From contig JBKOWN010000109.1 of the NCBI GenBank assembly GCA_046724435.1, forward strand, positions 1 to 50,345: a stretch of 50,345 bases of DNA, read 5' to 3'. Source of the DNA: Actinomycetota bacterium. GTDB lineage: Bacteria; Actinomycetota; Acidimicrobiia; IMCC26256; JACDBD01. The notes below the pieces were generated by a model. It did not search any database. It saw only the letters and a list, made by a program, of their open reading frames with translations, and had not been told where the DNA came from. Shown one piece after another: positions 2,399-50,345 of this stretch (within the stretch, counting starts at the first letter, position 1; the number at the start of each line of letters is the position of its first letter). A program made the position numbers and the translations under genes.

Positions 2399-3574
2399 TC
2401 ATCGGGTGGTGTCGAGCAGGCGGCGCATGAGCCCGTGTGCAACGACCGGCTCGGACCGCGCGACACCGCGTTCGGTGTACTCCCCGCCCTCGGCGTCGTA
2501 CGTCGAGTCGAACAAGAGGTAAGGAACCGGGGCGGAGGTGTGCGTCTTGATCGCGCACGGAGTCGCGTGGTCCGGCATCAGCAGGATCCGGTACGGCTCC
2601 CCGGCTCGATCAAGCACCTGGATGAGTGGAGCAATGACGTCGCGGTCCCATCGCTCGAGGGCGGCCACCTTCTCGTGGACCTCGCCCTGGTGCGCGGCCT
2701 CGTCAGTCGCCTCGACATGGAGGAGGAAGAAGTCGCGGTCCTCGAGTGACGCCAGCGCGGCGTCGCGTTGGGCGCCGTAGTCGTTGTCGAACCCGGCGGT
2801 GGCGCCGGGAACGTCGAGGACTTCGAGCCCCGTGAGCACCCCGAGCCCTCGCACGAGGTCGACGGCCGACGTGAGCCGGCCGCGTACGCCGTAGCGCGGC
2901 GCGAAGGACGGGAGGTCGGGCCGAACGCCCTGGCCCCAGAGCCAGATCTGCGTCGCCACCGAGCCGACCTCGGCCGCGCGCTCTGCGACAATCGGCTGCG
3001 ACGCCACCATGAGCGCGATGAGCTTCTCAGCCGCCGCCCCGACCGGGAGCACGACCGATTTCCCGGTGAGGTCGTGGGGCGGTACGCACTCGGCGTCGCC
3101 GAGCTCCCGCGGCACGACGCACAGATGGCGGTATTCGACACCGGGATGGAAACGAACACCGTCGCGCCCGCCGCCGAGCGCGGCGTCGAGCGCCGCGAGG
3201 ATCGGCGCGCTCTGCTCATTCGTCGGGTGACCGGCGGCGAAGTCGACCATCGTCGGCGGTGTCGCGTCGTCCAGCGTGACCAGGTTGCAACGGAAGGCAA
3301 CGTCGTCGGGGCCGAGCTCGATGCCCATCGCCGCCGCCTCGATCGGCGCACGCCCGGTGTGGAAGCGCGCCGGGTCGTATCCGAGAATCGCCATGTTGCC
3401 GACGTCGCTGCCGGGAGGAAGCCCGTCGGGGATCACGGCCGCCCTTCCGACCTCGGCGCGCGCTGCGAGGCGGTCGAGCGCCGGCATCTGGGCCGCCTCG
3501 AGCGGTGTGCGGCCGTCGAGCTCGGGGAGCGGCTCGTCGGCGCAACCGTCCGGCACGAGCACGACGTACTTCAC
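2399..3574 (-). CDS. Cofactor-independent phosphoglycerate mutase (ApgM) family protein; candidate non-orthologous homoserine kinase
   Basis: ORF 2399..3598. I place the start at GTG 3574 (VKYVVLVPDGCADEPL...), 7 nt after a GAAGGAGG Shine-Dalgarno. The metalloenzyme/ApgM-like sequence runs throughout (LVPDG..D, HVEATDEAAHQG, MPDHATP). It occupies the thrB position between the hom-thrC block and rho. Confidence 0.8.
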   Translation of the reverse strand: MKYVVLVPDGCADEPLPELDGRTPLEAAQMPALDRLAARAEVGRAAVIPDGLPPGSDVGNMAILGYDPARFHTGRAPIEAAAMGIELGPDDVAFRCNLVTLDDATPPTMVDFAAGHPTNEQSAPILAALDAALGGGRDGVRFHPGVEYRHLCVVPRELGDAECVPPHDLTGKSVVLPVGAAAEKLIALMVASQPIVAERAAEVGSVATQIWLWGQGVRPDLPSFAPRYGVRGRLTSAVDLVRGLGVLTGLEVLDVPGATAGFDNDYGAQRDAALASLEDRDFFLLHVEATDEAAHQGEVHEKVAALERWDRDVIAPLIQVLDRAGEPYRILLMPDHATPCAIKTHTSAPVPYLLFDSTYDAEGGEYTERGVARSEPVVAHGLMRRLLDTTR

Positions 3575-3587
3575 CGTTCCTCCTTCG

Positions 3588-3636
3588 CGCCGTCGCAAGC
3601 TCCGGCTCTGCGGTGACGGTCGGCGAAGCCGCCGCC
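3588..3636 (-). repeat. Dispersed structured intergenic element, copy 1 (sense on minus strand)
   Basis: Minus-strand read: GGCGGCTTCGCCGACCGTCACCGCAGAGCCGGAGCTTGCGACGGCG. It is followed directly by CGAAGGAGGAACGGTG, the SD and start of the ApgM-like gene. It aligns with copies at 11174, 21595, 31402 and 46734. Confidence 0.8.
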
Positions 3637-3697
3637 AACGCGGTCAAGGGTAGGCGCGGCATTCTTCGTCTTCCGACCGGATAGCGTCACCGCCACA

Positions 3698-4903
3698 ATG
3701 CGCTCATCGCGGCGGTACCCAACGTCGTTCGCCGCGGTCGTCGGACTCGTCGCTGCGACCGCGCTGTTCGTCGCCTGCAGCGACAGTGGCGGAGGCGGTG
3801 GTTCATCGGCGTCGAGGTCGGCCCCGTCCTCCGCTGGTGGTCAAGTCCGGCTCAAGCTCACAGCGATCGCGAACGTCGAAGACCCGACCGCACTCGCGAC
3901 GCGGGCCGGCGAGAGCACGCTGTACGTCACCGAGCAGGCCGGTCGGGTCCGGGCGATTCGAGACGGAGCGATCGATCCGCAACCGGTGCTTAATATCACC
4001 GACCAGGTGGGCAGTGGCGGCGAGCGCGGGCTCCTCGGTATCGCGTTCGCACCCGACGGCACGAAGATGTACGTCTATTACACGAACCGGGACGGCGACA
4101 TCCGACTCGACGAGTACACGATGTCCGGCAACTCGGTGAACACCGCGTCTCGCCGCCAAGTGCTCGCGGTGGACCACCCTCCCGCGCCGAACCACAACGG
4201 CGGACAGACGAGCTTCGGGCCCGACGGCATGTTGTACCTCGGGCTGGGCGACGGAGGCGGCGCCGCCGGCGACCAGGGCGAAGGCCACGTCGAGGGCGGC
4301 AACGCGCAATCGCGCAACACGATGCTGGGCAAGATCCTCCGCATCGACCCGACGCCGTCGGCCGGCGCGCCGTACACGATCCCCTCCGACAACCCGTTCG
4401 CGAACGGCGGCGGCCTGCCGGAGATCTGGGCGTACGGCCTGCGCAACCCGTGGCGCTTCTCCTGGGACCGCAAGACCGGTGACATGTGGATCGCCGATGT
4501 CGGGCAGAGCCAGTGGGAGGAGATCGACTTCGCGCCCGCAGGCCGAGGTGCAGGCGCGAATTACGGGTGGAATCGCCTCGAGGGAACGCACCAGTTCTCC
4601 GGGTCGGCGCCGGACGACGCCGTCGCCCCGATCTTCGAGTACTCGCACGAGGGCGGAGGGTGCTCGATCTCGGGCGGGTACGTGTACCGCGGGTCCAAGA
4701 TCCCGGCCCTCGCCGGCGAGTACGTCTACAGCGACTACTGCGAAAGCACGCTCCGCACCGTCAAGGAGCGCGACGGCAAGCTCGCCGGACAGCGCGACCT
4801 GGGTGTCGAAGCCAGCCAGGTGACTTCGTTCGGCCAGGACCAAGACGGCGAGCTGTACGTCCTGTCGCAGGCCGCCGGCCTCCAGCGCATCGACCCCGCG
4901 TAG
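3698..4903 (+). CDS. PQQ-dependent soluble aldose/sorbosone sugar dehydrogenase (YliI-like) lipoprotein
   Basis: 401 aa. Signal peptide with lipobox (LFVAC). Beta-propeller sGDH motifs HNGGQTSFGPDGMLYLGLGDGG and YGLRNPWRFSWD. Confidence 0.85.
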   Translation: MRSSRRYPTSFAAVVGLVAATALFVACSDSGGGGGSSASRSAPSSAGGQVRLKLTAIANVEDPTALATRAGESTLYVTEQAGRVRAIRDGAIDPQPVLNITDQVGSGGERGLLGIAFAPDGTKMYVYYTNRDGDIRLDEYTMSGNSVNTASRRQVLAVDHPPAPNHNGGQTSFGPDGMLYLGLGDGGGAAGDQGEGHVEGGNAQSRNTMLGKILRIDPTPSAGAPYTIPSDNPFANGGGLPEIWAYGLRNPWRFSWDRKTGDMWIADVGQSQWEEIDFAPAGRGAGANYGWNRLEGTHQFSGSAPDDAVAPIFEYSHEGGGCSISGGYVYRGSKIPALAGEYVYSDYCESTLRTVKERDGKLAGQRDLGVEASQVTSFGQDQDGELYVLSQAAGLQRIDPA

Positions 4904-6774: not shown

Positions 6775-8078
6775 TCGTCCTCGTCACCCAGGACACGCAC
6801 GACGGACCCGACACGGTGAACGACGTCGACGTCGCGCAGCGCATGGACCGTCGCGCGAAGGTTGGCTTCCCGAGCGCGGTGGGTCGCGAAGATGAGGCGG
6901 GCGTCGGCGCCGATGCCCCGCTGCTGCATCGACTTGATTGATACCCCGTGCTGGCCGAACTGGTCGGCGATCTTGGCCAGCACGCCCGGGCGGTCGGCGA
7001 CTTCCATGCGCAGGTAGAACTGCGACTCGATCTCGTCCATCGGCCGGATCCGTCGCTTGGCGAGGGCGCCGATCGTCGCACCCTTCCCGCCGGACGCGAA
7101 GTTCTTCGCCGCGTCGATGAGGTCTCCGAGCACGGCGGACGCGGAGGGGCCGCCCCCGGCTCCTCGCCCGTACAGCATCAACTCACCGACCGCGTCGCCC
7201 TCGATGAACAACGCGTTGAACGACCCGCGCACCGAGGCCAGCGGGTGGTGCACGGGGATCATCGCCGGGTGCACGCGCACCGCCACCTCGCCGTCGAGGC
7301 CCTCGGCCACGGCGAGCAGCTTCACGACGTAGCCCAGGTCGTGCGCGGACGCGATGTCGTGGTCGGTGATCTCGGTGATGCCTTCCCGGTACACGTCGCC
7401 GGCGACGACCCGAACGCCGAAGGCGATCGACGCGATGATCGCGGCCTTGGCCGCGGCGTCATCGCCTTCGATGTCAGCGGACGGATCCCGCTCCGCGTAG
7501 CCGAGCGCCTGTGCCTCGGCGAGGGCGTCGCCGAATGAGGAGCCCTCTTCCGTCATGCGCGTCAGTACATAGTTGGTCGTCCCGTTCACGATCCCGGTCA
7601 CGCGCCGGATGCGATCCCCGGCCAGGGACTCGCGCAGCGGGCGAATGAGCGGGATGCCGCCGGCGACGGACGCCTCGAAGAGGAGGTCGACGCCCGACCC
7701 CTCGGCGGTCTCGAAGAGCTCCTTGCCGGCGTTGGCAAGGAGCTCCTTGTTGGCCGTCACGACGGGCTTGCCGGATTTGAGCGCTTCGGTGATGAGCGAG
7801 CGTGCCGGCTCGATGCCGCCAATCACCTCGACGACGATGTCGATGTCGGGGTCGGTGACGACGGCCTCGCCGTCCTGTGTGAACCGGTTCGCCGGGAGCG
7901 GCACGTCTCGCTCGCGCGCGGGGTCACGCACGGCCACACGGGTCACGTCGAGGTGCACGCCCGCCCGCTGCTCGATCAGATCGGCGTTGTCCTGCAACAG
8001 ACGTACGAGCGCCGAGCCGACGTGCCCGCAGCCGAGGAGACCGACGCGCACGGTCTCGTCCTGCACCGGGTCTGCCAT
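6771..8078 (-). CDS. hom: Homoserine dehydrogenase with C-terminal ACT domain
   Basis: Start chosen at ATG 8078 ([24 protein letters not shown]). The longer ORF to 8273 would overlap lysA. NAD-binding GxGxxG, catalytic domain and ACT-like C-terminus. Confidence 0.95.
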
Positions 8079-11036: not shown

Positions 11037-11149
11037 GAAGCGGGTCCGGCGACACGCAGTGCGTCGCCCGTTCGCGCATGGTAGTTCGCGCTTCCTGGAG
11101 AACCGGCGTAGTTCAAAGGGCCGCTTGCTAGCCTCGACTACTTACGGTT

Positions 11150-11167
11150 GCCCTCGTAGCTCAGGGG
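11150..11167 (+). repeat. 18-nt duplicate of the 5' end of tRNA-Arg (GCCCTCGTAGCTCAGGGG)
   Basis: Identical to tRNA positions 1-18 at 11264-11281. The 96 bp in between carry element copy 5. Confidence 0.85.
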
Positions 11168-11173
11168 CGCGGC

Positions 11174-11226
11174 GGCGGCGGCTTTGCCGACCGTCGCCGC
11201 AAGAGCCCGAGCTCGGCGAGGGCGAC
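11174..11226 (+). repeat. Dispersed structured intergenic element, copy 5 (most diverged, with indels)
   Basis: GGCGGCTTTGCCGACCGTCGCCGCAAGAGCCCGAGCTCGGCGAGGGCGAC. The 5' half is identical to the consensus and the 3' half is diverged. Confidence 0.7.
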
Positions 11227-11263
11227 CAGCAAAATTGGCGCGCTGGTACCGTGAACTTTCACG

Positions 11264-11338
11264 GCCCTCGTAGCTCAGGGGATAGAGCAGTGGCCTCCGG
11301 AGCCATGTGCGCAGGTTCGAATCCTGCCGAGGGCGCCA
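11264..11338 (+). tRNA. tRNA-Arg (anticodon CCG), CCA encoded
   Basis: Manual cloverleaf. Acceptor stem GCCCTCG/CGAGGGC, D stem GCTC/GAGC, anticodon stem GTGGC/GCCAT with loop CTCCGGA, T arm GCAGG-TTCGAAT-CCTGC, discriminator G plus CCA. Confidence 0.9.
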
Positions 11339-11592
11339 GCCATCCCGGGCCGGGAGCTGAGCGGAGGATCTCGATGAGCAGGATCCAGACGTTGCTCAGC
11401 GAGCCCGCGTACGCGGCGAGGATCGCAACGGGCAACCACTAAAGGCCGCCTCCCGATTCGGCAGCGAGCGTGATTCCCGCTGCGATCGGTACGCCAACGC
11501 CCCCTCCTCGGGGGGGAGTAGCTATCCCCGGCCTTCGCTTCGCCGGCGTCGTCCGCACGGCCGGGTTGGCCACCGTGCGCGAGCCTGGGCCC

Positions 11593-12483: not shown

Positions 12484-12692
12484 AGGCGCCGTCGTCGGTC
12501 GTACCTCTCACACGTTGCCGGCACCGTTCGCCTGCGCGGTAGCGCCGGGACACTGCCCGGTCTGCGCGGGCCGCCACGGACCCACCCCACAACACCGCGA
12601 CCGCGAGCACAGCCGCCGTGTAACGAGCGATCCGCATGTCGTCCCTGCCCGCGATGAGCGCATCCTTCCATATCCCGGCGTAGCCTGCGGCA

Positions 12693-13496
12693 ATGCCCGC
12701 ACTCGATGGCAAGGTCGCGTTGATCACGGGAGCGGCGTCGGGTATCGGCCGGGCGACCGCCGAACGACTGGCGGGAGAAGGCGCCCGCGTGGGCGTCGTC
12801 GACCTGACCGAGGACGCCGGCCGTGAGGTCGCCGAATCGGTCGGGGGTGTCTTCCATCGAGCCGACGTCGGCGAGCCGCACGAGGTCGACGCAGCGTTCG
12901 CGACCGTCGAACGCGAGCTGGGCGGCGTCGATATCGCGTTCCTCAACGCGGGCATCGCCATAGGTCACCCGCAGATCGAGACGCTCCCCGACGACCTGTA
13001 CCGGCTGATCATGCGCGTCAACGTGGACGGAGTCGTGTACGGCACGCGCGCCGCTGTCCGAGCGATGGAACGACGCGACGGCGGTGCGATCGTCGCAACC
13101 GCGTCGCTTGCAGGGCTGATCCCGTTCCCGCCCGATCCCGTCTATGACCTCAGCAAGCACGCGGTGGTCGGTTTCATCCGCAGTGTCGCCCCATCGCTCG
13201 AGGCGAAGGGCATCACGGCGAACACGGTGAACCCGGGCATGACCGACACCAAGATCATGGGCGAGGACGCCCGCCGGGCGCTGCGAGACGCCAACTTCCC
13301 TCTCATGCCGCCGAGTCAGATCGCCGAGGCCGTGCTCGGGATCGTCACGGGCGGACGAACAGGCGAGTGCTGGGTCTGTCAGCCCGGCCGGGAGCCCGAG
13401 CCGTACCGCTTCCATGACGTTCCGGGACCGCGCTCCGAGGGCGCGCAGGGTCGGGTACCGCCGGGCGTCCGCGAGGGGACACTCGACAGCGGCTGA
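12693..13496 (+). CDS. SDR family oxidoreductase
   Basis: 267 aa. MPALDGKVALITGAASGIGRATA Rossmann motif, NAG and YxxSK (YDLSKHA) catalytic motifs. Confidence 0.9.
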   Translation: MPALDGKVALITGAASGIGRATAERLAGEGARVGVVDLTEDAGREVAESVGGVFHRADVGEPHEVDAAFATVERELGGVDIAFLNAGIAIGHPQIETLPDDLYRLIMRVNVDGVVYGTRAAVRAMERRDGGAIVATASLAGLIPFPPDPVYDLSKHAVVGFIRSVAPSLEAKGITANTVNPGMTDTKIMGEDARRALRDANFPLMPPSQIAEAVLGIVTGGRTGECWVCQPGREPEPYRFHDVPGPRSEGAQGRVPPGVREGTLDSG

Positions 13497-13577
13497 TCGG
13501 CTGAACCCCTGACAGCCCCGGACGGGGCACCTTCTATCCTGGGATTCCTCCGGCCGATCCCGGAGGGAGAGGACATC

Positions 13578-14084
13578 GTGGAAGACAACCCGAGCGCGGC
13601 ACGCGAGCCCGTCCAGCCCGAAGTGGTCCAGCAGTCGCCGGCGCCCGAGGGTGACGGCGGCGACGGAAGCCAGCCCCCGCAGGAGCAGGTCACCCGCCCG
13701 ACGAAGCTCATCCGGATCGCTTCGATGGTCCGCAACATGCTCGAGGAGGTTCGCCGCGCCCCGATCGACGACGCCGGGCGCAAGGCCTTGCGCGAGATCC
13801 ACGAGCGGTCGATCCACGAGTTGGAAGGGGTGCTCTCTCCGGATCTGCGGGAGGAGCTGTGCGAGGTCGTGCTGCCGTTCAAGGACGACGCGCCGACCGA
13901 GTCCGAGGTCCGGCTCGCGCAGGCCCAGCTCGTCGGGTGGCTCGAGGGGTTGTTCCAGGGCATCCAAGCCACGTTGTTCACCCAGCAGATGGCGGCCCAG
14001 GGGCAATTCGACGAGATGCGCCGCCGCGCCATCGAGTCGGGCCAGCAACCGCCGCAGGCTCCACCGGGGAGCGGATACCTCTGA
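13578..14084 (+). CDS. bpa: Bacterial proteasome activator Bpa/PafE family (DUF2587)
   Basis: 168 aa. The core AQAQLVGWLEGLFQGIQATLFTQQMAA is closely similar to M. tuberculosis Rv3780. The C-terminus ends GSGYL, with a penultimate Tyr as in the GQYL proteasome-docking motif. GGAGGGAG SD before GTG 13578. Confidence 0.85.
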   Translation: MEDNPSAAREPVQPEVVQQSPAPEGDGGDGSQPPQEQVTRPTKLIRIASMVRNMLEEVRRAPIDDAGRKALREIHERSIHELEGVLSPDLREELCEVVLPFKDDAPTESEVRLAQAQLVGWLEGLFQGIQATLFTQQMAAQGQFDEMRRRAIESGQQPPQAPPGSGYL

Positions 14085-15466
14085 TGCAGGAACCGGTGGC
14101 GGCGTCCGACCCACCGCGGATGTTCGGCTCCTCGTGGACGCCGGACAGCTGGCGCGCGCGTCCCGCCAGCCAGCAGCTCGAATGGCCCGACGGCCCCGAG
14201 CTCGACACAGCGCGGGCGGATCTTCGCCGTCAGCCACCGCTCGTCTTCGCCGGCGAGGCTCGCCAGCTCACGGAGTCGCTGGCGGCGGTGGCCGCCGGTG
14301 ACGCGTTCCTGCTGCAAGCGGGTGACTGCGCCGAGTCGTTCGACGCGTTCTCTGCCGAAACGATTCGCGACAAGCTCAAGGTGATTCTCCAGATGGCCGT
14401 CGTGCTGACCTACGGCGCGGGCGTGCCGGCGGTGAAGGTCGGACGCATCGCCGGGCAGTTCGCCAAGCCGCGCACCGCGCCGACCGAGACCCGAGACGGC
14501 GTGGAGCTGCCTTCCTTCCGTGGCGACATGGTCAACGACTTCGCGTTCGACGCCGGCGCGCGCCGGCCCGATCCGCAGCGGATGGTGCGCAGCTACAACC
14601 AGTCGGCAGCCACGTTGAACCTGCTGCGCGCGTTCACGAAGGGCGGCTACGCCGACCTCAGCCGCGTGCACCAATGGAACCTGGAGTACGTGGCCACCAG
14701 CCGGGAGGGCCGGCGGTACGAGGCCGTCGCCCAGGAGATCGAGCGGGCGTTGCGGTTCATGGCCGCGTGCGGCATCGACCTCGCCGCCGAGATGCAGCTC
14801 CACCAGGTCGATTTCTTCACCGCGCACGAGGCGCTGGTCCTCGACTACGAGGAGGAGCTCACCCGGCGCGACAGCCTCACCGGGCGCTGGTACGACTGCT
14901 CGGCCCACCTGCTCTGGGCGGGCGAGCGCACCCGTCAACCCGGCGGCGCCCACGTCGAGTTCCTGTCCGGCGTCGAGAACCCGGTCGGCGTCAAGCTCGG
15001 ACGCGACGCCTCACCCGAGGACGTGCTGGCGCTCTGCGAGCGCCTCGACCCGTCCCGCCAGCCCGGCCGGCTCGTGCTGTACAGCCGCATGGGCGCCGAC
15101 CACGTCGAGGAGAAGCTCCCGCCGCTGCTCCGCGCGGTGCGGATGTCGGGCCACCCCGTCGTGTGGGCCTGTGACCCGATGCACGGGAACACTTTCGTGC
15201 ACGACAGCGGTTACAAGACAAGGCGCTTCGAGGACGTGATGCGCGAGCTGCGCGGCTTCTTCGCCGCCTGCGACGCCGCAGACGTGTGGCCCGGGGGCGT
15301 CCACGTCGAGCTCACGGGCGAGAACGTCACCGAGTGTCTCGGCGGCACCGAGGAAGTCCTCGGCGACCACCTCGAGCACCGCTACGAGACGATGTGCGAC
15401 CCTCGGCTGAACGCCCGCCAGTCGCTCGACCTGGCCTTCCAGGTCGCCGAGCTGGTGCGTCGCTGA
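14084..15466 (+). CDS. aroG: Class II 3-deoxy-7-phosphoheptulonate (DAHP) synthase
   Basis: Start at ATG 14084, overlapping the bpa TGA. AFLLQAGDCAESF, KPRT and the C-terminal region are typical of AroG class II (M. tuberculosis Rv2178c-like). Confidence 0.93.
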   Translation: MQEPVAASDPPRMFGSSWTPDSWRARPASQQLEWPDGPELDTARADLRRQPPLVFAGEARQLTESLAAVAAGDAFLLQAGDCAESFDAFSAETIRDKLKVILQMAVVLTYGAGVPAVKVGRIAGQFAKPRTAPTETRDGVELPSFRGDMVNDFAFDAGARRPDPQRMVRSYNQSAATLNLLRAFTKGGYADLSRVHQWNLEYVATSREGRRYEAVAQEIERALRFMAACGIDLAAEMQLHQVDFFTAHEALVLDYEEELTRRDSLTGRWYDCSAHLLWAGERTRQPGGAHVEFLSGVENPVGVKLGRDASPEDVLALCERLDPSRQPGRLVLYSRMGADHVEEKLPPLLRAVRMSGHPVVWACDPMHGNTFVHDSGYKTRRFEDVMRELRGFFAACDAADVWPGGVHVELTGENVTECLGGTEEVLGDHLEHRYETMCDPRLNARQSLDLAFQVAELVRR

Positions 15467-21480: not shown

Positions 21481-21532
21481 GGGCCGGCCTTTCGAGACGA
21501 GGGGCGGCGTACTCGTGTTTGTAACGCAGCCG

Positions 21533-21558
21533 GATACGAAACGCATCCGTCTCGTATC
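21533..21558. promoter_or_regulatory. Inverted repeat GATACGA-N12-TCGTATC upstream of the MFS-TetR operon; candidate TetR operator
   Basis: 7-bp perfect arms at 21533-21539 and 21552-21558, 53-78 nt upstream of the MFS start codon. Confidence 0.3.
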
Positions 21559-21594
21559 GAATGTGACGAAGGTCTCAGCCCGATCCCTTCATGG

Positions 21595-21643
21595 CGTCGT
21601 CGCAAGTTCCGGCTCTGCAGTGACGGTCGGCAATGCCGCCGTC
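21595..21643 (-). repeat. Dispersed structured intergenic element, copy 2
   Basis: Minus-strand read: GGCGGCATTGCCGACCGTCACTGCAGAGCCGGAACTTGCGACGACGC. It begins at the stop codon of the small membrane protein gene and lies about 115 nt upstream of the MFS start. Confidence 0.8.
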
Positions 21644-21839
21644 ACTGCGCGCGCAGCGCCTTCCACCCGACGATGCCGACCGCGAGGCCGAACGCGATCG
21701 AGATCGCCGCCAGCGCGCCGTGGACGACGTAGAACCCGGCCGATCGGTTCTCGCCGGCCATGTTGACGAGACGGGTAATCCAGACGAACAGGGCCCACCC
21801 GCCCGCGGCGAGCAGGAGGATCGAGACGCGGTGGCTCAC
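21642..21839 (-). CDS. Small two-TM membrane protein (65 aa), function unknown
   Basis: GTG 21839 overlaps the dapA-like TGA (GTGA). Sequence VSHRVSILLLAAGGWALFVWITRLVNMAGENRSAGFYVVHGALAAISIAFGLAVGIVGWKALRAQ has two clear hydrophobic helices. It is in frame with the tail of ORF 21642..22538. Confidence 0.55.
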   Translation of the reverse strand: MSHRVSILLLAAGGWALFVWITRLVNMAGENRSAGFYVVHGALAAISIAFGLAVGIVGWKALRAQ

Positions 21840-31368: not shown

Positions 31369-31401
31369 GAGAATGTCCCACGACGGCGCCGGGGGCGCGA
31401 C

Positions 31402-31452
31402 GACGGCGGCTTTGCCTACCGTCGCCGCAAAGCCGGAGCTTGCGACGGCGAC
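31402..31452 (+). repeat. Dispersed structured intergenic element, copy 3
   Basis: GACGGCGGCTTTGCCTACCGTCGCCGCAAAGCCGGAGCTTGCGACGGCGAC. Perfect 8-9 bp GGCTTTGC/GCAAAGCC stem. About 90-120 nt upstream of ctaE. Confidence 0.85.
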
Positions 31453-31541
31453 TGTAAGCCCGACCAGCGCGCTCACGGAGATCACGGTAACCGGGAAGCC
31501 CGTTTCATCACGCGCCCAGAAGCCTTCACCCGCGGTCGGCC

Positions 31542-33818: not shown

Positions 33819-35212
33819 TCGTCAAGCGCCTCGTCCGTTGGTTCGACGACCGGCTCGGCGCCGCCCGCTTCGTCCGCACCGCGCTGAACAAGGTGTTCCC
33901 GGATCACTGGTCGTTCATGCTCGGCGAGCTCGCGCTCTATTGCTTCGTGATCCTGATCCTCACCGGGGTGTATCTCACGTTCTTCTTCACGCCGGGCACG
34001 AAGGAGGTCGTCTACAACGGCAGCTACGCGCCGCTGAAGGGCGTGTCGATGTCGCAGGCCTACGAGTCCGTGCTCCGGATCAGCTTCGACGTGCGCGCCG
34101 GTCTGGTGATGCGACAGATCCACCACTGGGCGGCGCTGATCTTCGTCGGCTCGATCATCGCCCATCTCATGCGCATCTTCTTCACAGGCGCGTTCCGACG
34201 GCCGCGCGAGCTCAACTGGATGATCGGAATCACCCTGCTCCTGCTCGCCATCGCCAACGGCTTCACGGGGTACTCACTCCCGGACGACCAGCTGTCGGGC
34301 ACGGGCCTGCGCATTGCGTACTCGGTGGTCATCTCGGTGCCCGTCGTCGGCGTATGGATCGCCTTCCTCATCTTCGGCGGGGAGTTCCCCGGCAACGAGG
34401 TGCTCACACGGTTCTTCGTGATCCACATTCTCATCGTCCCGGTCGCGATCGCGGTGCTGCTCGCCGCGCACCTGGCCATCCTGGTGCGCCAGAAGCACAC
34501 GCAATACCGCGGGGCGGGCCGCAAGGAAAGGAACGTCGTCGGCGCGCGGCTGTGGCCGACGTTCACGGCCAAGACCATCGGGCTGTTTTTCTTCGTGTTC
34601 GCCGCCTGCGCGGCGCTGGGCGGTCTCGCCCAGATCAACCCGGTGTGGATCTGGGGGCCGTTCCAGCCCGCGGCCGTCAGCGCCGGGTCCCAACCCGACT
34701 GGTACGTCGGTTGGCTCGAGGGGTCGCTGCGGCTGCTGCCCGGCTGGGAGATCAGGGCGTTCGGGCACGAGGTCCCCAACCCGTTCTTCTCGGGCGTGCT
34801 GCTCCCCGGGATCACGTTCATGCTGCTGTACGCGTGGCCGTTCCTCGAAGGTCGCTTCACGAAGGAGAACCGCGAGGAGCACCACCTGCTCGACCGCCCG
34901 CGCGACCGGCCTGTTCGGACGGCCATCGGTATCGGCGCGCTCGCGTTCTACGCCGTGCTGTTCGTCGCCGGCGGGAACGACGTGCTCGCGGCCCGGTTCA
35001 ACGTCTCGGTGAACCTCATCACCAACATCCTCCGCGTCGCGCTCTTCGTCGTGCCAGTGGTCGCCGGGATCTTCACCTACCGATTGTGCAAGGAGCTGGC
35101 TGCTCGAAGCCCGACCGCGGGCAAGCCGGAGGCTCCGCCCGGGGCGGACGTCATCGTGCGCACTCCGGAGGGTGGCTACGTGGACGTCGAGGAGCCGGCG
35201 ACAACGCCGTAG
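33815..35212 (+). CDS. qcrB: Cytochrome bc1 complex cytochrome b subunit
   Basis: 465 aa. Heme-ligand helices (RQIHHWAALIF, FFVIHILIVPVAI). Start overlaps the qcrA stop. Confidence 0.95.
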   Translation: MIVKRLVRWFDDRLGAARFVRTALNKVFPDHWSFMLGELALYCFVILILTGVYLTFFFTPGTKEVVYNGSYAPLKGVSMSQAYESVLRISFDVRAGLVMRQIHHWAALIFVGSIIAHLMRIFFTGAFRRPRELNWMIGITLLLLAIANGFTGYSLPDDQLSGTGLRIAYSVVISVPVVGVWIAFLIFGGEFPGNEVLTRFFVIHILIVPVAIAVLLAAHLAILVRQKHTQYRGAGRKERNVVGARLWPTFTAKTIGLFFFVFAACAALGGLAQINPVWIWGPFQPAAVSAGSQPDWYVGWLEGSLRLLPGWEIRAFGHEVPNPFFSGVLLPGITFMLLYAWPFLEGRFTKENREEHHLLDRPRDRPVRTAIGIGALAFYAVLFVAGGNDVLAARFNVSVNLITNILRVALFVVPVVAGIFTYRLCKELAARSPTAGKPEAPPGADVIVRTPEGGYVDVEEPATTP

Positions 35213-35595
35213 CGGCGGCGCGCCTCGGGCGTGTTCTCGACGATCTGCCATCGCGACAGGACTCCGTCGGTGACCTCGGCCAACCAGATCACGCCGAGCT
35301 TCGATTCCTCCTCCTCGGGGAGATCGAGATGGGAGCCGGTCGTGGTGCCGAGCACCGCCACTCGGGAATCAGCGGCGGTGAGGTGCCACGGGTAGATGAC
35401 GTACTCGGGAAACGACGAGAAGTAGCCCTTCCACGCCTCGACGTTCGCATGGCGCCCGACGACCGGCGTTTCGTCGAGCACAACGAGCCGATGGTCATCG
35501 CTCATGAGCGCCCCGAGCCCGTCCAGGTCGCTCCGGTTGATGCAGTCCACGAAGCTCACGACGGCGGCCAGGGGCGGGAGCGGCACCCTGCCCAT
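35176..35595 (-). CDS. NTF2/SnoaL-like (DUF4440-like) small protein
   Basis: 139 aa. FVDCINRSDLDGLGALMSDDHRLVV...NVEAWKGYF pattern of SnoaL-like folds. It starts 4 nt after the ctaF stop, and its 3' end overlaps qcrB by 37 nt (convergent). Confidence 0.6.
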   Translation of the reverse strand: MGRVPLPPLAAVVSFVDCINRSDLDGLGALMSDDHRLVVLDETPVVGRHANVEAWKGYFSSFPEYVIYPWHLTAADSRVAVLGTTTGSHLDLPEEEESKLGVIWLAEVTDGVLSRWQIVENTPEARRRYGVVAGSSTST

Positions 35596-35599
35596 CCCG

Positions 35600-35995
35600 T
35601 CACTCCGTCGGGGAGGTGTCGCGACTCTGGCGGATCAGGCCGATGACGCCGAACGCGAGCACGATGGCGCCGCCGAGGATGACCCAGACCCCGAACACGA
35701 ATCCGGTGGCGAACACCGCCGCGCCGAAAGCGAACACGAACGGCCAAACCGTTGAGGCAGGGAATTGATCGACCCTGCCCGCGCCGTCGGCGAGGGTCGC
35801 GTCGGATCGGTCCTCGGGACGGGGCGGGAATCGCCGCGCCTGGAACAGCAGGTACCCACCGGCAAGGAGCCCGAGGAGCGAGCTCGCCGCCAGCATCGTC
35901 GTGCCGGCGTCCTCGTAGCTCGTGAACCAGTAGATCGTGCCGACCACGACGAAGAACGCGGTGACGCCGAGATAAAAGAAGGATTCGACCTTCAC
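35600..35995 (-). CDS. ctaF: Cytochrome c oxidase subunit IV (actinobacterial CtaF)
   Basis: GTG 35995 overlaps the cta[30 protein letters not shown]... with four hydrophobic helices, as in Rv2199c-type CtaF. Confidence 0.8.
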
Positions 35996-44445: not shown

Positions 44446-46722
44446 TCAGGACTGCTGCCGGAGGACGTTGAGCGCCGAGCCGGCCCGGAACCACTCGATG
44501 TGCTCCTCGGACATCGTGTGCGTGGTCCGGATCTCGTCACGGGACCCGTCGGCGTGGTGCACGACGACTGTGACGGGCTTGCCCGGCGCGAGCTCGGCGA
44601 GCCCCACCACGTCGACCGTGTCGTCAGCCCGGAACTTCTCGTAGTCGGCGGGATCGGCGAGCGTCAGCGCGAGCACGCCCTGCTTCTTGAGGTTCGCTTC
44701 GTGGATCCGCGCGAACGAGCGCACGATGATCGCCCGACCACCCATGAAGCGCGGCTCCATGGCCGCGTGCTCACGCGACGAGCCCTCGCCGTAGTTCTCG
44801 TCGCCGACGGCGGCCCACTCGATGCCGGCGTCCTTGTACTCCCGCGCCAGCTCGGGCAGCGGCTTCACGGATCCGTCCCGCGCGTCGGTGCCGTTGCCGT
44901 GCCCGTCGGCGAACGCGTTGGACACACCCGTGAAGAGGTTCTGGGAGATGTTCGTGAGGTGGCCGCGGTAGCGCAGCCACGGGCCGGCGGGCGAGATGTG
45001 GTCGGTCGTGCACTTCCCCACCGCCTTGAGCAAAACGCGCAGGCCGGTGAGGTCCTCGCCGTCCCACGCCGCGAACGGCTCGAGCAGCTCGAGGCGCTCG
45101 CTGCCCGGCTGAACGAGGACCTCCACCTTCGAGGAGTCGCCCGCCGGGGGCTGGAAGCCGGAGTCACCGGGGTCGAAGCCCTTGTCCGGCAGCTCGTCGG
45201 CGACGGGCGGCTCGAGATGCACCGGTGCTCCGTCGGGCCCGGGCACGCCGTCGTGGACGAAGTCGACGTCGAGCCGGCCGGTGAGCGCCATGCCGACGAC
45301 GGTCTCCGGGGAACCGATGAATGCCAGCGTGTCGGCATTGCCGTCGTTCCGGCGCGGGAAGTTGCGGTTGTACGACGTGACGATCGTGTTGCGCTCGCCC
45401 ATCTCGATGTCGTCGCGTTTCCATTGCCCGATGCAGGGCCCGCAGGCGTTGGCGAGCACGCTGGCTCCGATCGCCTCGAGGTCGTCGAGCAGACCGTCGC
45501 GCTCGATCGTCGCCCGCACCTGCTCGGAGCCGGGCGTGATGAGGAGCGGCGAACGGGTCTCGAGCCCCGCCGCCTTCGCCTGCCGGGCGACGTGGGCGGC
45601 GCGACCGATGTCCTCGTACGACGAGTTCGTGCACGAGCCGACGAGCGCGTACGAGATCTCGGGCGGGTAGCCCTCCGCCTCGACCGCGTCGCGCACCTCG
45701 GAGACGGGCCGGTCGAGGTCGGGCGTGTGCGGGCCGACGAGGTGCGGCTCGAGCTGGTCGAGGTCGATCTCGACGACGCGGTCGTAGAAACGCTCCGGCT
45801 CGTCTTCGACCTCGGGGTCGATCCGCAGGTGGTGCGCGTACTCGTTGGCGAGGTCGGCGATCTCCTCGCGCTGTGTCGCCTTGAGATACATCGCCGACCG
45901 GTCGTCGTACGGGAAGAGGGAGCACGTGGCGCCGATCTCGGCGCCCATGTTGCAGATGGTGGCCTTGCCGGTCGCCGAGATCGACTCACACCCGCCGCCG
46001 AAGTATTCGACGATCGCGCCCGTACCGCCCTTCACGGTGAGGATGCCGGCGACCTTGAGGATCACGTCCTTGGGCGCAGTCCATCCCGACAGCCGGCCCG
46101 TGAGGTGCACGCCGATGACCTTCGGGACCTTCGTGTTGAACGGCCAACCCGCCATCACGTCGACCGCGTCGGCGCCGCCTACGCCGATGGCGACCATGCC
46201 GAGCCCGCCGGCGTTGGGCGTGTGGCTATCGGTGCCGAGCATCATCCCGCCCGGGAACGCGTACTGCTCGAGCACGACCTGGTGGATGATCCCCGAGCCG
46301 GGATTCCAGAACCCTATGCCGTACTTCGCCGACACCGTGCGCAGGAACTCGTACACCTCGGAGTTGGCGTCGAGCGCGTTCTTGAGGTCGATCTCAGCGC
46401 CGACCCGCGCCTGGATGAGATGGTCGCAGTGCACGGTCGTCGGCACCGCGACGCGCGGGAGGCCCGCTGTCATGAACTGGAGCAGGGCCATCTGCGCGGT
46501 CGCGTCCTGCATCGCGACCCGGTCGGGCCGGTAATCGGCGTAGTCGACACCGCGTTCCAACCCGATGGTGTGCGGGTCCTCGGCGTGCGCGAACAGCACT
46601 TTCTCGGCGTACGTGAGCGGCCGCCCCAAGCGGCGGCGGCCGACTGCGACCCGTTCCGGATAGCGGCCGTAGACGTCCTCGACGAGCGCGACCGGCGTCG
46701 CGTGCTCGGTCCTGTCGGCCAT
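44446..46722 (-). CDS. acn: Aconitate hydratase, about 758-aa mitochondrial-type
   Basis: Start at ATG 46722 ([11 protein letters not shown]) after an [42 protein letters not shown] and NSSYED motifs. Its length and N-terminus resemble eukaryotic ACO2-type aconitase rather than the 900+ aa AcnA/IRP type. Confidence 0.93.
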
Positions 46723-46733
46723 ATTGCTCCTCT

Positions 46734-46782
46734 GTCGCCGTCGCAAGCTCCGGCTTTGCAGCAACGGCCGGCAAAGCCGTCC
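46734..46782 (-). repeat. Dispersed structured intergenic element, copy 4
   Basis: Minus-strand read: GGACGGCTTTGCCGGCCGTTGCTGCAAAGCCGGAGCTTGCGACGGCGAC. It is followed directly by AGAGGAGCAATATG, the acn SD and start. It lies 58 nt downstream of the STAND gene stop. Confidence 0.85.
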
Positions 46783-46842
46783 TCGCAGCCGAGGCTACGT
46801 CACGATTCCCGCCCGGGCCTCAGCGGAGGGGCAGGCCGGCCG

Positions 46843-49434
46843 TCAGGCCAGGTTGTCCTCTCCCCGGACAATTGCCACTGCCTCACGCCGGCTGAGGTGG
46901 GAACCCGACGTAAACGACTCGTCGAACCCATCCTCGCCGAGCGCGCGCTTCAGCTGCTCGACGAGCTCGGCTTCGCCGCGCCGGAGGGCCGGCCAAACCT
47001 GTATGCCTGCTCGACGCCGGATGCCCTCTGCTGCGCCGAGGGTGACCGCGGCCGTGTCCGGGGCGCCCGACGCGAATGCCAGCCGGGCGAACCCCGCCAG
47101 GCAGAGGGTGACGCCCACGGTGCTCTCCACGTCCAAGCTCATGGTGAGGCCCTCGTCGAGCAACGGTCGAGCATCGTCGAGCCGGCCCTGCCTGATGGCG
47201 AGGATCCCGAGCTGCGACCAAGAGACGGAGAGCCACGCGCTATCGAACTGCCGGCTCAGGTCGCGCACTTGCATCAAGTGAGGAAGAGCATCGTCGAGGC
47301 GCCCGAGATCGAGCTCCACTTCTCCGACGGTGCTGAGAGCGATGGCGCTCCAGAACGGCTCGTCCTGATCGCGCAGGTGTTCACGGCACAGAGACGCTTC
47401 TCGCAGCGCACCGTCGAAGTCGTTGACGATCGGCAACACCCAGGAGATGGCCAAGTGTGCGATGGCCTCGAGGAATGGGTCGTCGAAGGCTCCCAGCAAC
47501 GGCTCCAAGCGGCCCTTGGCGGCCACAGCCGCGGTGTCGTCGCCGAGCTGCTCGAACGTGGCGGCCGCTGACCAGAAGAGCTCCGCTTGTGCGTGGTCGT
47601 CCAGGGAGGCGACCGCGGGTGTGAGCTCGTCGATCCAGGACCGAACTTCGATGAGGTGATCCCGCATCGCCCAGAACACCCACAGGGCACGGAACAGGTG
47701 CGGCAGCGGCTCGATGTCGTGAGCGAGGAACCAGCGAATGGCCGCACCCAGGTTGGCCCACTCAACCTGCAGGCGCTCCGCCCAGTCGGACTGATCCGAA
47801 CCGCGCAGGGGCCGGTCGGCGCGCTCGGCCAGATCGCGGAAGTAATTCGCGTGGCGTCGTTGGACCTCGGCGAGATCGGCATTCGCCGCCGACTGCTCGG
47901 CGACGAACTCCCGGACGGTCTCGAGCATGCGGAACCGCGGCTCCCGAGCTGTTGCGTCGACGCGCACGAGGCTCTGCCGAGCGAGGGCTTCGATCAGATC
48001 GAGGGTGCTGTCCTCGTCGCGGTCACTCACGTGGGCCGCGGCCTCGATTGCCCAGCCGTCGACGAACACCGCGAGCGTGGAAAGCATGGCTCCTTCGGCT
48101 TTGTCGAGGAGCCCGACGCTCCAATCAACGGTGGCCCGCAGGGTGCGCTGACGTTCGGGCAGATCGACGGGACCGGTGCCCGTGGCGTCGAGGGACGTCT
48201 CGAGCCGGGCCAGCAGGGCGTCTGGGTTGAGCAGCCGCGTGCGTGCTGCCGCCAGCTCGATCGCCAGCGGCACGCCTTCGAGGCGTCGACAGATCTCCGC
48301 CACAGCGCCGGCGTTCTCAGTGGTGAGAGCGAAGTCGGGACGTACCGCACGAGCGCGGTCAACGAACAGCTCGATTGCCGGCGACGACGCCAGCTGTTCG
48401 ACCTGCCAATCGCCGGAAGCCGGCGGAAGCGAAAGTGCGGGAACCGGGTACTCGCGTTCGCCGCGCAGGCGAAGGGCAATCCGGCTCGTGGCCAAGATCT
48501 TCACGCCTGGGCAGCGCGTCAAGACCTCTTCGAGATCAGGAGCCGCGGCAACAACCCGCTCCAAGTTGTCGAGCACGAGCAGGAAGGGCGTATCGCCGAA
48601 GTGTTCGACGAGTGCGTCCAGCGGCGACTGCGAACGCGAGACATCGGCTCCCACCGCACTGGCAATACTCACCAACACGAGCTCTGGCTTGGCGACTGAC
48701 GCGATCGGCACGAAGACTTCCCCCGACAGGTAGCGATTGCCGAGACGTTCGCCCACCGCGACCGCGAGCCGCGTCTTTCCGATCCCTCCGGGACCGGTGA
48801 GCGTGACGAGCCGCGTCTCCGGAAGTTGGATGAGCCCGGCGACGTCGTCGATGACCTCTTCTCGACCGATCAGCGAAGTCGTGTCCACCGGTAGTGAACG
48901 AACCGCTCGCCCGGGATGCTCTGGTGACGTAGGCACCGCCGTACCGGCCGCAGCGAAGCGCTCACTGAGCATCACCGCGAGGTCATCGCGGACCAAACGG
49001 CCAAGCTCCCGGGCGGTACGGAAGTTGCGGTACGAATCTGCGGCCTCACCCCTGATCCGCTCGATCACCTCAGTCAATCGCGGGTCTCGATCGGGCGAAG
49101 GTGCCTTGATGTAGAGCAGACGGGGAAGCGACCCCGAGAGCTCGAACTCGTCCTGCAGACCCGAGATGTCCATACCCGGACTGACCCAGCCGTAACGCTG
49201 CCAGTACAGACCGATGAAGATGTCGCTCTGCTCGAGGTACGCGCGGTACAGCTCCTGAGGAGGGTGCGGGCGCGCTCCCAACTCGAACATCACCGGAGTG
49301 AGCCGGAGCGCCGATATAGCACGCGAGACAGCGGCGCGCTCGGGACCCAGCTCTTCCAGCGTGGAGCTGACAAACACGCGGAGACGTTGGTCGGGAGTCC
49401 GGATCGCGGTGCTGTGCTCGGTCAGCCCTGTCAT
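46843..49434 (-). CDS. STAND NTPase: N-terminal DUF4062-like domain + NB-ARC/AAA P-loop + TPR-like C-terminal repeats
   Basis: 863 aa. N-terminus RVFVSSTLEELGPERAAVSRAISALRLTPVMFE...SDIFIGLYWQRYGW (DUF4062 pattern). Walker A TGPGGIGKTRLA, Walker B FLLVLDNLE, ILATSR, GVPLAIELAAAR (NB-ARC/AfsR-like). Long helical repeat region. No DNA-binding domain seen. Confidence 0.85.
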   Translation of the reverse strand: MTGLTEHSTAIRTPDQRLRVFVSSTLEELGPERAAVSRAISALRLTPVMFELGARPHPPQELYRAYLEQSDIFIGLYWQRYGWVSPGMDISGLQDEFELSGSLPRLLYIKAPSPDRDPRLTEVIERIRGEAADSYRNFRTARELGRLVRDDLAVMLSERFAAAGTAVPTSPEHPGRAVRSLPVDTTSLIGREEVIDDVAGLIQLPETRLVTLTGPGGIGKTRLAVAVGERLGNRYLSGEVFVPIASVAKPELVLVSIASAVGADVSRSQSPLDALVEHFGDTPFLLVLDNLERVVAAAPDLEEVLTRCPGVKILATSRIALRLRGEREYPVPALSLPPASGDWQVEQLASSPAIELFVDRARAVRPDFALTTENAGAVAEICRRLEGVPLAIELAAARTRLLNPDALLARLETSLDATGTGPVDLPERQRTLRATVDWSVGLLDKAEGAMLSTLAVFVDGWAIEAAAHVSDRDEDSTLDLIEALARQSLVRVDATAREPRFRMLETVREFVAEQSAANADLAEVQRRHANYFRDLAERADRPLRGSDQSDWAERLQVEWANLGAAIRWFLAHDIEPLPHLFRALWVFWAMRDHLIEVRSWIDELTPAVASLDDHAQAELFWSAAATFEQLGDDTAAVAAKGRLEPLLGAFDDPFLEAIAHLAISWVLPIVNDFDGALREASLCREHLRDQDEPFWSAIALSTVGEVELDLGRLDDALPHLMQVRDLSRQFDSAWLSVSWSQLGILAIRQGRLDDARPLLDEGLTMSLDVESTVGVTLCLAGFARLAFASGAPDTAAVTLGAAEGIRRRAGIQVWPALRRGEAELVEQLKRALGEDGFDESFTSGSHLSRREAVAIVRGEDNLA

Positions 49435-50012: not shown

Positions 50013-50345
50013 TCAGTGTGGTTGCCAGGCGTCCGCATCGGTGGTGAGGGCGGCGACGCTCTCGGGCAGGGCGCCCGCGGCCAGGTCGGCGAGGGAAACG
50101 CGCTCGAGAACCGCCCGTAGGTTGGCGCGCAACGCGACCCACACCTCGGGGAGGCGGACGGCGGCGCCCCGATAGTGCAAGGCCTCGGGACGGGACCCTT
50201 GCACGGCGGCCAGCGGTCCCTCGACCGACCGCAGGACCTCCGCGATCGAGATCTCGCTCGGCGCCCGGGTCAGCGCGTAGCCGCCCTCGGCGCCTCGACG
50301 GGTGAAGACGAGCCCCGCGTTGCGCAGGTCAGCGAGGATGTTCTC
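50013..50345 (-). CDS. Rrf2-family transcriptional regulator, C-terminal part (the gene start lies beyond the window end)
   Basis: The in-frame minus-strand read from the window edge is ENILADLRNAGLVFTRRGAEGGYALTRAPSEISIAEVLRSVEGPL..., the typical Rrf2 wing/dimerisation region. Confidence 0.8.
   Translation of the reverse strand, partial: ENILADLRNAGLVFTRRGAEGGYALTRAPSEISIAEVLRSVEGPLAAVQGSRPEALHYRGAAVRLPEVWVALRANLRAVLERVSLADLAAGALPESVAALTTDADAWQPH

Follow-up and report, generated by a model that had tools for sequence, protein, structure and literature searches.

We analysed a 50,345-nucleotide (nt) stretch of actinobacterial DNA (GenBank assembly GCA_046724435.1, contig JBKOWN010000109.1; the whole stretch is hereafter referred to as the window), which has a G+C content of ~70% and contains five copies, c1 to c5, of a short structured repeat. 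At c5, the copy that had been flagged in an earlier note on this DNA, the repeat resides on the minus strand directly in front of a gene whose product was assigned to the aconitases by a Pfam match. In the direction of this gene, a -10-like hexamer read from the sequence, TAGCCT (46792..46797), lies 2 nt upstream of a first hairpin, P1 (GCUGCGAGGACGGC UUU GCCG G CCGUUGCUGC; 46758..46789; three mismatched pairs), which is followed by an AAA linker (46755-46757) and a second hairpin, P2 (GCCG GA G CUUG C GA CGGC; 46737..46754), both hairpins being placed by covariance-model alignment. The remaining segment (46720..46736) consists of a GACA tail, the Shine-Dalgarno (SD) sequence GAGGAG (46727-46732), a CAAT spacer and the aconitase ATG (46720-46722). 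TAGCCT, which recurs in aconitase orthologues without the intact element, is putative host promoter sequence outside the repeat. The earlier note had drawn a unit of ~50 nt; the repeat itself is real, but its true extent is larger, about 65-72 nt. It begins ~7 nt further 5' (at 46789 in c5), the 5' strand of P1 having been left outside the unit drawn then, and the 3' side of c5 reaches into the SD sequence (46727).

The five places and strands proposed for the copies were borne out by sequence patterns and by a covariance model, R1. Run over the whole window with filters off, R1 recovered exactly five copies scoring 63.7-78.1 bits, at 3582-3641(-), 11169-11230(+), 21589-21648(-), 31397-31456(+) and 46730-46789(-). 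The next-best matches, at <=23.6 bits, are antisense echoes of the palindromic part of the same copies or chance matches, and a weak match at 50235-50293(-) was rejected as coding sequence. A 25-nt pattern of the 5' half matched the window five times versus 0.00 expected from shuffles, and a 19-nt pattern of the 3' half four times versus 0.38. Copy c1 (78.1 bits; 3572..3652, minus strand) comprises a -10 sequence, TACCCT (3647-3652), P1 (3610-3641), P2 (3589-3606) and the SD sequence GGAGG (3579-3583), behind which an ApgM-type phosphoglycerate mutase gene starts with GTG (3572-3574) on the same strand. Copy c2 (63.7 bits; 11169..11230, plus strand; P1 11169-11200, P2 11205-11223) belongs to a variant P2 subfamily (GCCC..GGGC), has no SD and sits upstream of the promoter of a tRNA-Arg(CCG) located at 11264-11338. 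Copy c3 (74.9 bits; 21589..21648, minus strand; P1 21617-21648, P2 21596-21613) is separated by ~45 nt from the ATG (21546) of a downstream MFS transporter gene, and c4 (77.6 bits; 31397..31456, plus strand; P1 31397-31428, P2 31432-31449) is located between divergent genes, ~90 nt ahead of the GTG (31542) at which cox3 starts. The identical orientation relative to transcription that had been noted for the co-directional copies c2 and c4 is in fact common to all five, each being sense to the next gene (ApgM, tRNA-Arg, MFS transporter, cox3 and aconitase).

Beyond the window, a 21-nt pattern of the 3' half matched at least 117 stretches in a scan of one genome per species, and the listed genome matches all reside in 19 metagenome-assembled genome (MAG) assemblies. 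Most of these stem from soil projects, and their labels read Acidimicrobiia, Actinomycetota or uncultured Actinomycetes. A pattern of the apical part of P1 matched at least 120 further stretches in contigs of soil metagenomes; together, the matches listed in the two scans give more than 230 further copies. The plasmids, phages and IMG/VR viral contigs searched contained 0 copies. Within the fetched pieces, extra copies occur at ~1 per 20-30 kb beyond the ascertained ones, and in the window the density is ~1 per 10 kb, which would correspond to ~100 or more copies per genome. In an Rfam scan of the window, the tRNA-Arg(CCG) at 11264-11338 alone reached its gathering score, and at E<=10 nothing was found at the element positions of L011 and L086 (L-numbers denote fetched loci that carry, or are orthologous to, element sites). 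The exact sequence yielded nothing in the literature, and no description was found under repeats, Acidimicrobiia or leaderless genes. The repeat, which the earlier note had not recognised either, is undescribed so far and has so far been found only among uncultured soil Acidimicrobiia.

An all-against-all comparison of alignment columns in ~150 copies ranked highest a set of nested pairs that were absent from the fold proposed earlier. They define P1, in which the 5' flank GCGGCGACGG pairs with CCGTCGCCGC, a segment formerly drawn as a loop. In minimum free energy (MFE) folds, P1 continues into the conserved CGGC-UUU-GCCG apex and, with a single bulged A, becomes a 14-bp hairpin, resulting in a G+C-rich structure of 32 nt with a UUU loop. 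An ARA linker joins P1 to P2, which in the main family comprises seven pairs, namely 4 bp, tandem G.A/A.G and a G-C pair that is capped by a C(U/C)UG tetraloop (GCCG-GA-G[CUUG]C-GA-CGGC); 3' of P2 follow GAC, a purine-rich SD, ~5-8 nt and the start codon. Covariation was assessed in two alignments. A2 holds 115 copies that were collected by a pattern on the P2 side, the 3' half, and P2 was therefore judged on other copies; A6 holds 119 copies collected independently from metagenomes by the P1-apical pattern and aligned to the covariance model, and thus to the model's own structure. In A2, P1 and the 4-bp P2 stem showed 64 cells in which both sides had changed, compared to 15.7 in shuffles, and in A6, P1 and the seven-pair P2 showed 14 pairs with double changes versus 5.9 expected (94 cells versus 22.6); in neither case did any of 500 shuffles score as high. 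Compensatory changes affect 6/7 P2 pairs in A6. Variants of P2 with intact pairing occur in 36 secondary copies (GCCC..GGGC, GCGG..CCGC) and in the P1-ascertained metagenome set (GCCT..AGGC, GCCGTCG-CTTG-CGACGGC, GCCGTTG-CCTG-CAACGGC, GGCATCG-CCTG-CGATGCC and GTCGTCG-CTCG-CGACGAC). Among P1 mismatches, G.T (105) exceeds A.C (43; p=4e-7), which identifies the mRNA-sense strand, i.e. that of the downstream gene, as the one that folds. The element has two sense-strand hairpins, and these are under selection. While the stems covary, there is next to no variation in the P1 apex and the P2 loop; part of this invariance is due to ascertainment, as A6 was collected with a pattern of the P1 apex and A2 with one of the P2 half.

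Two further arrangements of these modules were observed. Compound forms of the type P1-P2(GCCC..GGGC)-SD-P2(GCCG..CGGC)-SD are present in L150 (1810-1900), L169 (5567-5660), L142 (~11340-11420), L231 (660-760) and L108 (~3990-4070). The P2-SD half is hence tandemly duplicable, and it also occurs solitarily as a leader, e.g. in L099 near 482.

The position of the repeat relative to genes was determined in a census of 152 copies. Downstream genes are co-oriented with the element in 112 cases versus 36, upstream genes display no bias (72 in the same and 70 in the opposite orientation), and in co-directional gaps the element lies in sense 54 times and in antisense 18 times. A start codon is found 10-15 nt past the conserved core in 66/150 copies and at <=25 nt in 90/150, with an SD in 75 of these 90. 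In a metagenome replicate, the start codon lies at <=25 nt in 58/107 copies with a peak at 12-14 nt, and the antisense control is flat. The bases past the core read A/C, C, A, followed by a purine run. Orientation and position, for which a random pattern had been considered, are therefore biased towards co-oriented downstream genes and start codons. On the 5' side, TANNNT hexamers end 3-6 nt before the first P1 base in 6-14 copies per position versus ~1 elsewhere, and they are present in 27/45 divergent-context copies (~60%) and 14/52 co-directional ones. In Mycobacterium tuberculosis, the centre of TANNNT precedes transcription start sites by 7-12 bp, and a -35 element is unnecessary (PMC3898074). 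As the position of TANNNT in front of P1 matches this spacing, transcription would be expected to start on the first P1 bases. A scan for E. coli-type promoters at c1 and c5 returned nothing. The downstream proteins are unrelated, with 117 Pfam families among 110 of them, none with more than four members, and without functional enrichment; such diversity disfavours ligand-specific control.

Further evidence comes from orthologous sites with and without the element. Among the loci compared, 46/110 downstream-gene groups contain both filled and empty states. Forty distinct empty sites comprise 17 that are leaderless-like, 7 with an SD leader of their own and 16 others, mostly short SD-less spacers; 33/40 are without their own SD. 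In many empty sites the start codon follows 6-8 nt behind a -10 hexamer that is identical or nearly identical to that of the filled orthologue, as in leaderless genes; at filled sites the order is the shared -10, 3-8 host bases, P1-P2-GAC-SD-spacer and start codon. Filled/empty pairs are L095 / L021 + L071, L067 / L115 + L148, L088 / L099, L097 / L064, L057 / L176, L103 / L034, L063 / L195, L094 / L026, L080 / L142 and L037 / L215. An intercistronic example is provided by filled L086, TGA-CAC-[element]-AGGAGAACAA-ATG, and empty L148, with TGATCGCAA before the start. Because empty sites keep the -10 and mostly lack an SD, the promoter belongs to the host and the SD to the element.

The window itself takes part in this polymorphism. 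It is empty at ~13490-13570, where L096 (6047-6106, -) and L092 (4399-4458, +) hold an antisense copy between orthologues of the window genes 12684-13496 and 13655-15466, and also at ~35600, where L078 has a copy (6912-6971). The cox3 copy c4 is common to the window, L018, L050 and L196, while L160 is without it and has another copy beside the start. Intact copies are missing at six loci encoding aconitase orthologues (80-88% identity across the N-terminal 300 amino acids); of these loci, L238 and L242 keep the TAGCCT hexamer of c5, and the 24-nt leader in L242 resembles the first 20 nt of the element and is probably, to judge from this likeness, a deletion derivative. Both ends of the consensus contain the 9-nt sequence GCGACGGCG as a direct repeat (P1 positions 4-12, and the 3' strand of P2 plus tail), and L148 (near 11297) retains just CTGCGACGGCGC at the site that is filled in L067; in sequence, this remnant looks like the product of a deletion between the direct repeats. 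As an observation apart, the window (35221-35599) and L018 contain a ~380-nt extra segment with a 153-amino-acid open reading frame (ORF; 35176-35634(-)), which is absent from L050 and L078. The L078 copy lies next to the position of that segment and is flanked by a ~16-nt duplication (CCAGAGCCGCGACACC ... CAGAGAGCGCCGACACC), and its P1 begins with 8 nt that also occur, unchanged, as host sequence in the empty sites. The idea derived from L078 that the 5' strand of P1 is copied from the target fails at the L096/L092 site and in general.

We consider it somewhat probable that the element is a dispersed mRNA leader and ribosome-binding-site (RBS) cassette, gained and lost, by which genes with leaderless or coupled initiation become SD-led. 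This reading draws on the repeat family, its hairpins and their folding on the sense strand, its location with respect to -10, SD and start codon, and the filled/empty polymorphism. The element would be transcribed as the leader of the downstream gene; where a promoter adjoins, transcription would start at P1, which would then form the extreme 5' end of the mRNA. By analogy, a 5'-terminal P1 might keep RNase E or J from degrading the mRNA in a 5'-end-dependent manner, and the SD of the element would drive canonical initiation on genes that are otherwise leaderless or coupled. Stabilising 5'-terminal stem-loops are known from the Escherichia coli ompA leader, the Bacillus subtilis aprE and ermC leaders and STAB-SD, where a stable hairpin at or near the mRNA 5' end precedes a strong SD and hinders 5'-end-dependent decay. 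Those leaders each serve a single gene, whereas the element described here is a mobile repeat family in which protection is proposed by analogy. The earlier suggestion of a REP/MITE-like repeat or a cis-acting 5'-untranslated region (5'-UTR) module was broad, and it fits the data on orientation, SD and start codon, -10 and filled/empty sites. A more far-reaching version is rather doubtful. It would have a mobile 5'-UTR cassette land precisely between transcription start and start codon, rewire the initiation mode genome-wide and add a 5'-terminal hairpin; the precise landing might be achieved by insertion into promoter open complexes or by another start-site-directed mechanism, and a dedicated RNA-binding partner might be involved.

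Several points weigh against the leader/RBS cassette. The transcription start at P1, co-transcription and effects on stability or translation are all inferred from sequence, the gene calls behind the census stem from a crude ORF finder based on third-codon-position G+C (GC3), and as the copies are related to one another, the shuffle-based significance is overstated. The change that separates filled from empty sites may have been insertion or deletion. Roughly 25-40% of copies lie away from a start codon, e.g. in antisense, in convergent gaps, at a tRNA promoter (c2) or ~90 nt off (c4). Predicted SD accessibility did not differ significantly between the native and the shuffled element (0.557 versus 0.543); the wider initiation region is predicted to be slightly more accessible with the native element (0.502 versus 0.477; p=0.001). 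In addition, the P1 apex and the P2 loop are conserved beyond the needs of a generic protective hairpin, which hints at a specific partner.

A serious rival, although we regard it as unlikely, holds that the element is non-autonomous, mobile and purely selfish, akin to REP/REPIN, PATE or MITE sequences, and merely tolerated at these sites, without gain for the host. The hairpins would then be recognition structures for mobilisation as single-stranded DNA (ssDNA), e.g. by an HUH/Y1-type transposase, and the start-side position would result from insertion into promoter open complexes, tolerated because the element carries an SD. The filled/empty polymorphism, independent insertions in the same intergenic region and copies in contexts other than 5' UTRs are in line with this, as are the footprint in L148 of a deletion between terminal direct repeats and sporadic flanking duplications of 8-40 nt (L078, L212, L068/L025, L085 and window c2). 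Copies are singletons or direct tandems, some of them partial, and subfamilies are distinguished by linked non-pairing positions (GCAAAGCC..CGACA, GCAGAGCC..CGCCA and GCAGGAGCC..CGACC), as is typical of repeat lineages; together with the tandem P2-SD modules, the subfamilies indicate descent from several source copies. However, the element has no terminal inverted repeats, its ends being GCGGCGAC... and ...GACAAGGAG and its sole inverted repeats residing internally in P1 and P2, and target duplications are neither general nor of fixed length: both the ungapped flank repeats (mean 5.49 versus 5.35) and a gapped comparison (6 versus 2.3 expected at the highest useful threshold) are close to controls. 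No arrangement of P1...ORF...P2 bracketing a transposase or other ORF, as expected for an autonomous parent, was found in 1.6 Mb of sampled DNA, and the lack of copies on the plasmids, phages and viral contigs searched likewise speaks against a selfish element. The excess of G.U over A.C favours the mRNA-sense strand and fits RNA, although it is compatible also with sense-strand ssDNA. Both the CUUG tetraloop and the tandem G.A pairs count among the classic motifs of RNA, which also argues against selfish spread alone. Finally, insertions upstream of promoters would be equally neutral, yet ~60% of the divergent-context copies lie exactly at the inferred transcription start.

Alternatively, the near-invariance of the P1 apex and the P2 loop among covarying stems might point to a binding platform for a trans-acting RNA-binding protein or small RNA, which we consider improbable. 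Such a factor, as yet hypothetical, would recognise the P1 apex (CGGC-UUU-GCCG with the bulged A) together with the P2 loop and G.A motif, and would govern a global post-transcriptional regulon at the level of translation or decay. Both loops present a similar GCUU(U)GC motif, as read from the sequence, P2-SD modules occur solitarily and in tandem, and the element adjoins the SD of many housekeeping genes (ClpC, Ffh/FtsY, RRF, MetK, Def, PRPP synthetase and aconitase). The invariance, however, besides being partly due to the A6 and A2 search patterns, is explained equally well by recent spread of the repeat. The platform is compatible with, and not exclusive of, the leader/RBS cassette. There is no evidence for a CsrA-like GGA-in-loop arrangement; the GGA lies within the P2 stem, among its tandem G.A pairs. 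The fold proposed in the earlier note, a pseudoknot or mutually exclusive hairpins formed by helix A (GGCUUUGC/GCAAAGCC) and helix B (CCGUCGC/GCGACGG), with the function of a riboswitch-like switch or of a terminator or insulator without a U tract, is very improbable. The two complementarities do exist, with 90.9-93.2% of cells paired, and as helix A is complementary to the P1 apex, an alternative conformer is conceivable. In contrast to P1 and P2, both helices show 0 compensatory changes in the independently ascertained A2 and A6, the same as shuffles, and the substitutions between copies that had been taken to preserve pairing find no counterpart in covariation. Helix B pairs are broken in 23-46 of ~110 sequences (up to 46/113 in A2 and 45/110 in A6) because those columns covary with other partners, and helix A is disrupted by an inserted G in the common subfamily GCAGGAGCC. 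Moreover, MFE folds pick P1, and a full pseudoknot of P1 with helix A appears implausible from the sequence on steric grounds, for want of a linker between the two 3' strands. Sequestration of the SD, a thermometer or riboswitch-like occlusion was dropped, as native and shuffled accessibility are alike; folding predicts neither occlusion nor marked exposure of the SD, which makes a switch mechanism unlikely, and the downstream genes are functionally unrelated. The terminator is contradicted by the missing U tract, by a scan at c1 and c5 that found no terminator-like site (P1 being followed by ARA and P2) and by the absence of a bias towards the 3' ends of upstream genes, whose orientation was even.

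The nearest described kind to which the leader/RBS cassette may be likened, going by published descriptions, are REP2 of Neisseria and the inverted repeat (IR) sequences of Borrelia plasmids. Like the present element, these are dispersed intergenic repeats without terminal inverted repeats and with two predicted RNA stem-loops, which lie directly upstream of ORFs and lend an RBS and 5' UTR to many different genes. REP2 is 120-150 bp long, occurs in ~25 copies per genome and brings its own promoter and ATG (Delihas 2011, PMC3184786). The element described here, at ~70 nt, is half that size and far denser (five per 50 kb), stems from another phylum and differs greatly in G+C content; its -10 hexamers vary between copies and are host-owned, and spacer and start codon vary as well and apparently lie outside the repeat. 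An apparent conversion from leaderless to leadered is not mentioned for REP2 in the review (PMC3184786), and compared to REP2 as described there, the location of the element where relatives have leaderless or SD-less starts is an added feature.

With RAYT-mobilised REP, REPIN and BIME sequences, the element shares short, G+C-rich, high-copy hairpins, putative co-transcription, stem covariation and presence/absence polymorphism, and P1, with 32 nt, is an imperfect palindrome of REP size (20-40 nt). According to the account of Di Nocera et al. (2013, PMC3733652), as far as it goes, a tag GTAG or CGTC is conserved at one end of REPs. The present element has no GTAG, and its CGTC lies within the variable P1 stem, its T occurring in 67/113 sequences; the column of this T covaries with its P1 partner (A-U 50, G-C 24, G-U 16). 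In contrast to REP and REPIN, the copies do not form inverted pairs, lie at gene 5' ends and not at 3' ends or in convergent gaps, and possess a second, different hairpin as well as an SD. No RAYT gene turned up in the 8-kb MAG pieces, whole genomes not having been searched. Filled and empty orthologous sites match MITEs, but terminal inverted repeats and a fixed-length target duplication do not occur. PATEs derived from IS200/IS605 are characterised by two subterminal hairpins that, in full-length relatives, also flank a tnpA or tnpB gene; the present element has two hairpins, and no P1...P2 pair around an ORF was found in the 1.6 Mb sampled, again without a search of whole genomes. MIRUs resemble the element in being actinobacterial, 40-100 bp long, intercistronic within polycistronic mRNA, filled or empty between species and endowed with G+C-rich inverted repeats; they are characterised by short ORFs overlapping the stop and start codons of flanking genes and by variable-number tandem arrays (PMC3184786). 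In contrast, none of the sense frames of the present consensus contains a start or stop codon, upstream stops precede P1 and start codons follow the SD, there is mostly one copy per site, and about half of the sites lie in 5' UTRs close to a promoter.

In actinobacteria, leaderless and SD-led initiation coexist, about a quarter of the genes being leaderless in M. tuberculosis (PMC3898074). How genes pass from one mode to the other becomes a testable question with this family, since it offers dozens of natural pairs of orthologues in close relatives, of which one has an SD leader and the other does not. It also adds a covariation-supported two-hairpin RNA, absent from databases, from a major uncultured soil lineage, and it is a source of spurious ORF extensions and start-codon errors in annotation. 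If the leader/RBS cassette holds true, the element would represent a compact natural leader/RBS part for hosts of high G+C content; if its mobile version does, this would amount to a genome-wide heritable rewiring of the translation initiation mode in an actinobacterial lineage.

Some additional features of the window were recorded. A ~40-nt duplication (11129-11167 and 11243-11281) brackets c2 and covers a -10-like hexamer and a short leader as well as the initial 18 nt of the tRNA-Arg. The tRNA start, GCCCTCGTAGCTCAGGGG, is thus found at 11150-11167 and again at 11264-11281, the upstream one being a truncated tRNA 5' fragment, and the orthologous locus L096 (~3180-3330) displays the same bracketed-tRNA arrangement. 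Read in antisense, the P2 module of c2 (11205-11223) resembles the 5' end of the tRNA at 11150-11168 (GCCCTCGCAAGCTCGGGC versus GCCCTCG-TA-GCTC-AGGGG); going by these letters, the likeness could be due to chance between G+C-rich words or to a tRNA-related origin. Downstream of c3, a hairpin, UACGAGACGGAUGCGUUUCGUA, overlaps the predicted ATG of the MFS transporter (21530-21590, -), the 119-nt stretch 21530-21648, which includes c3, has a folding z-score of -5.2, and a five-codon mini-ORF, ATGAAGGGATCGGGCTGA, starts 3 nt past the c3 core. Directly upstream of the aconitase leader, an 863-amino-acid protein is encoded at 46843-49434(-), whose DUF4062, AAA_22/AAA_16 and TPR domains correspond to a STAND-like NTPase architecture.

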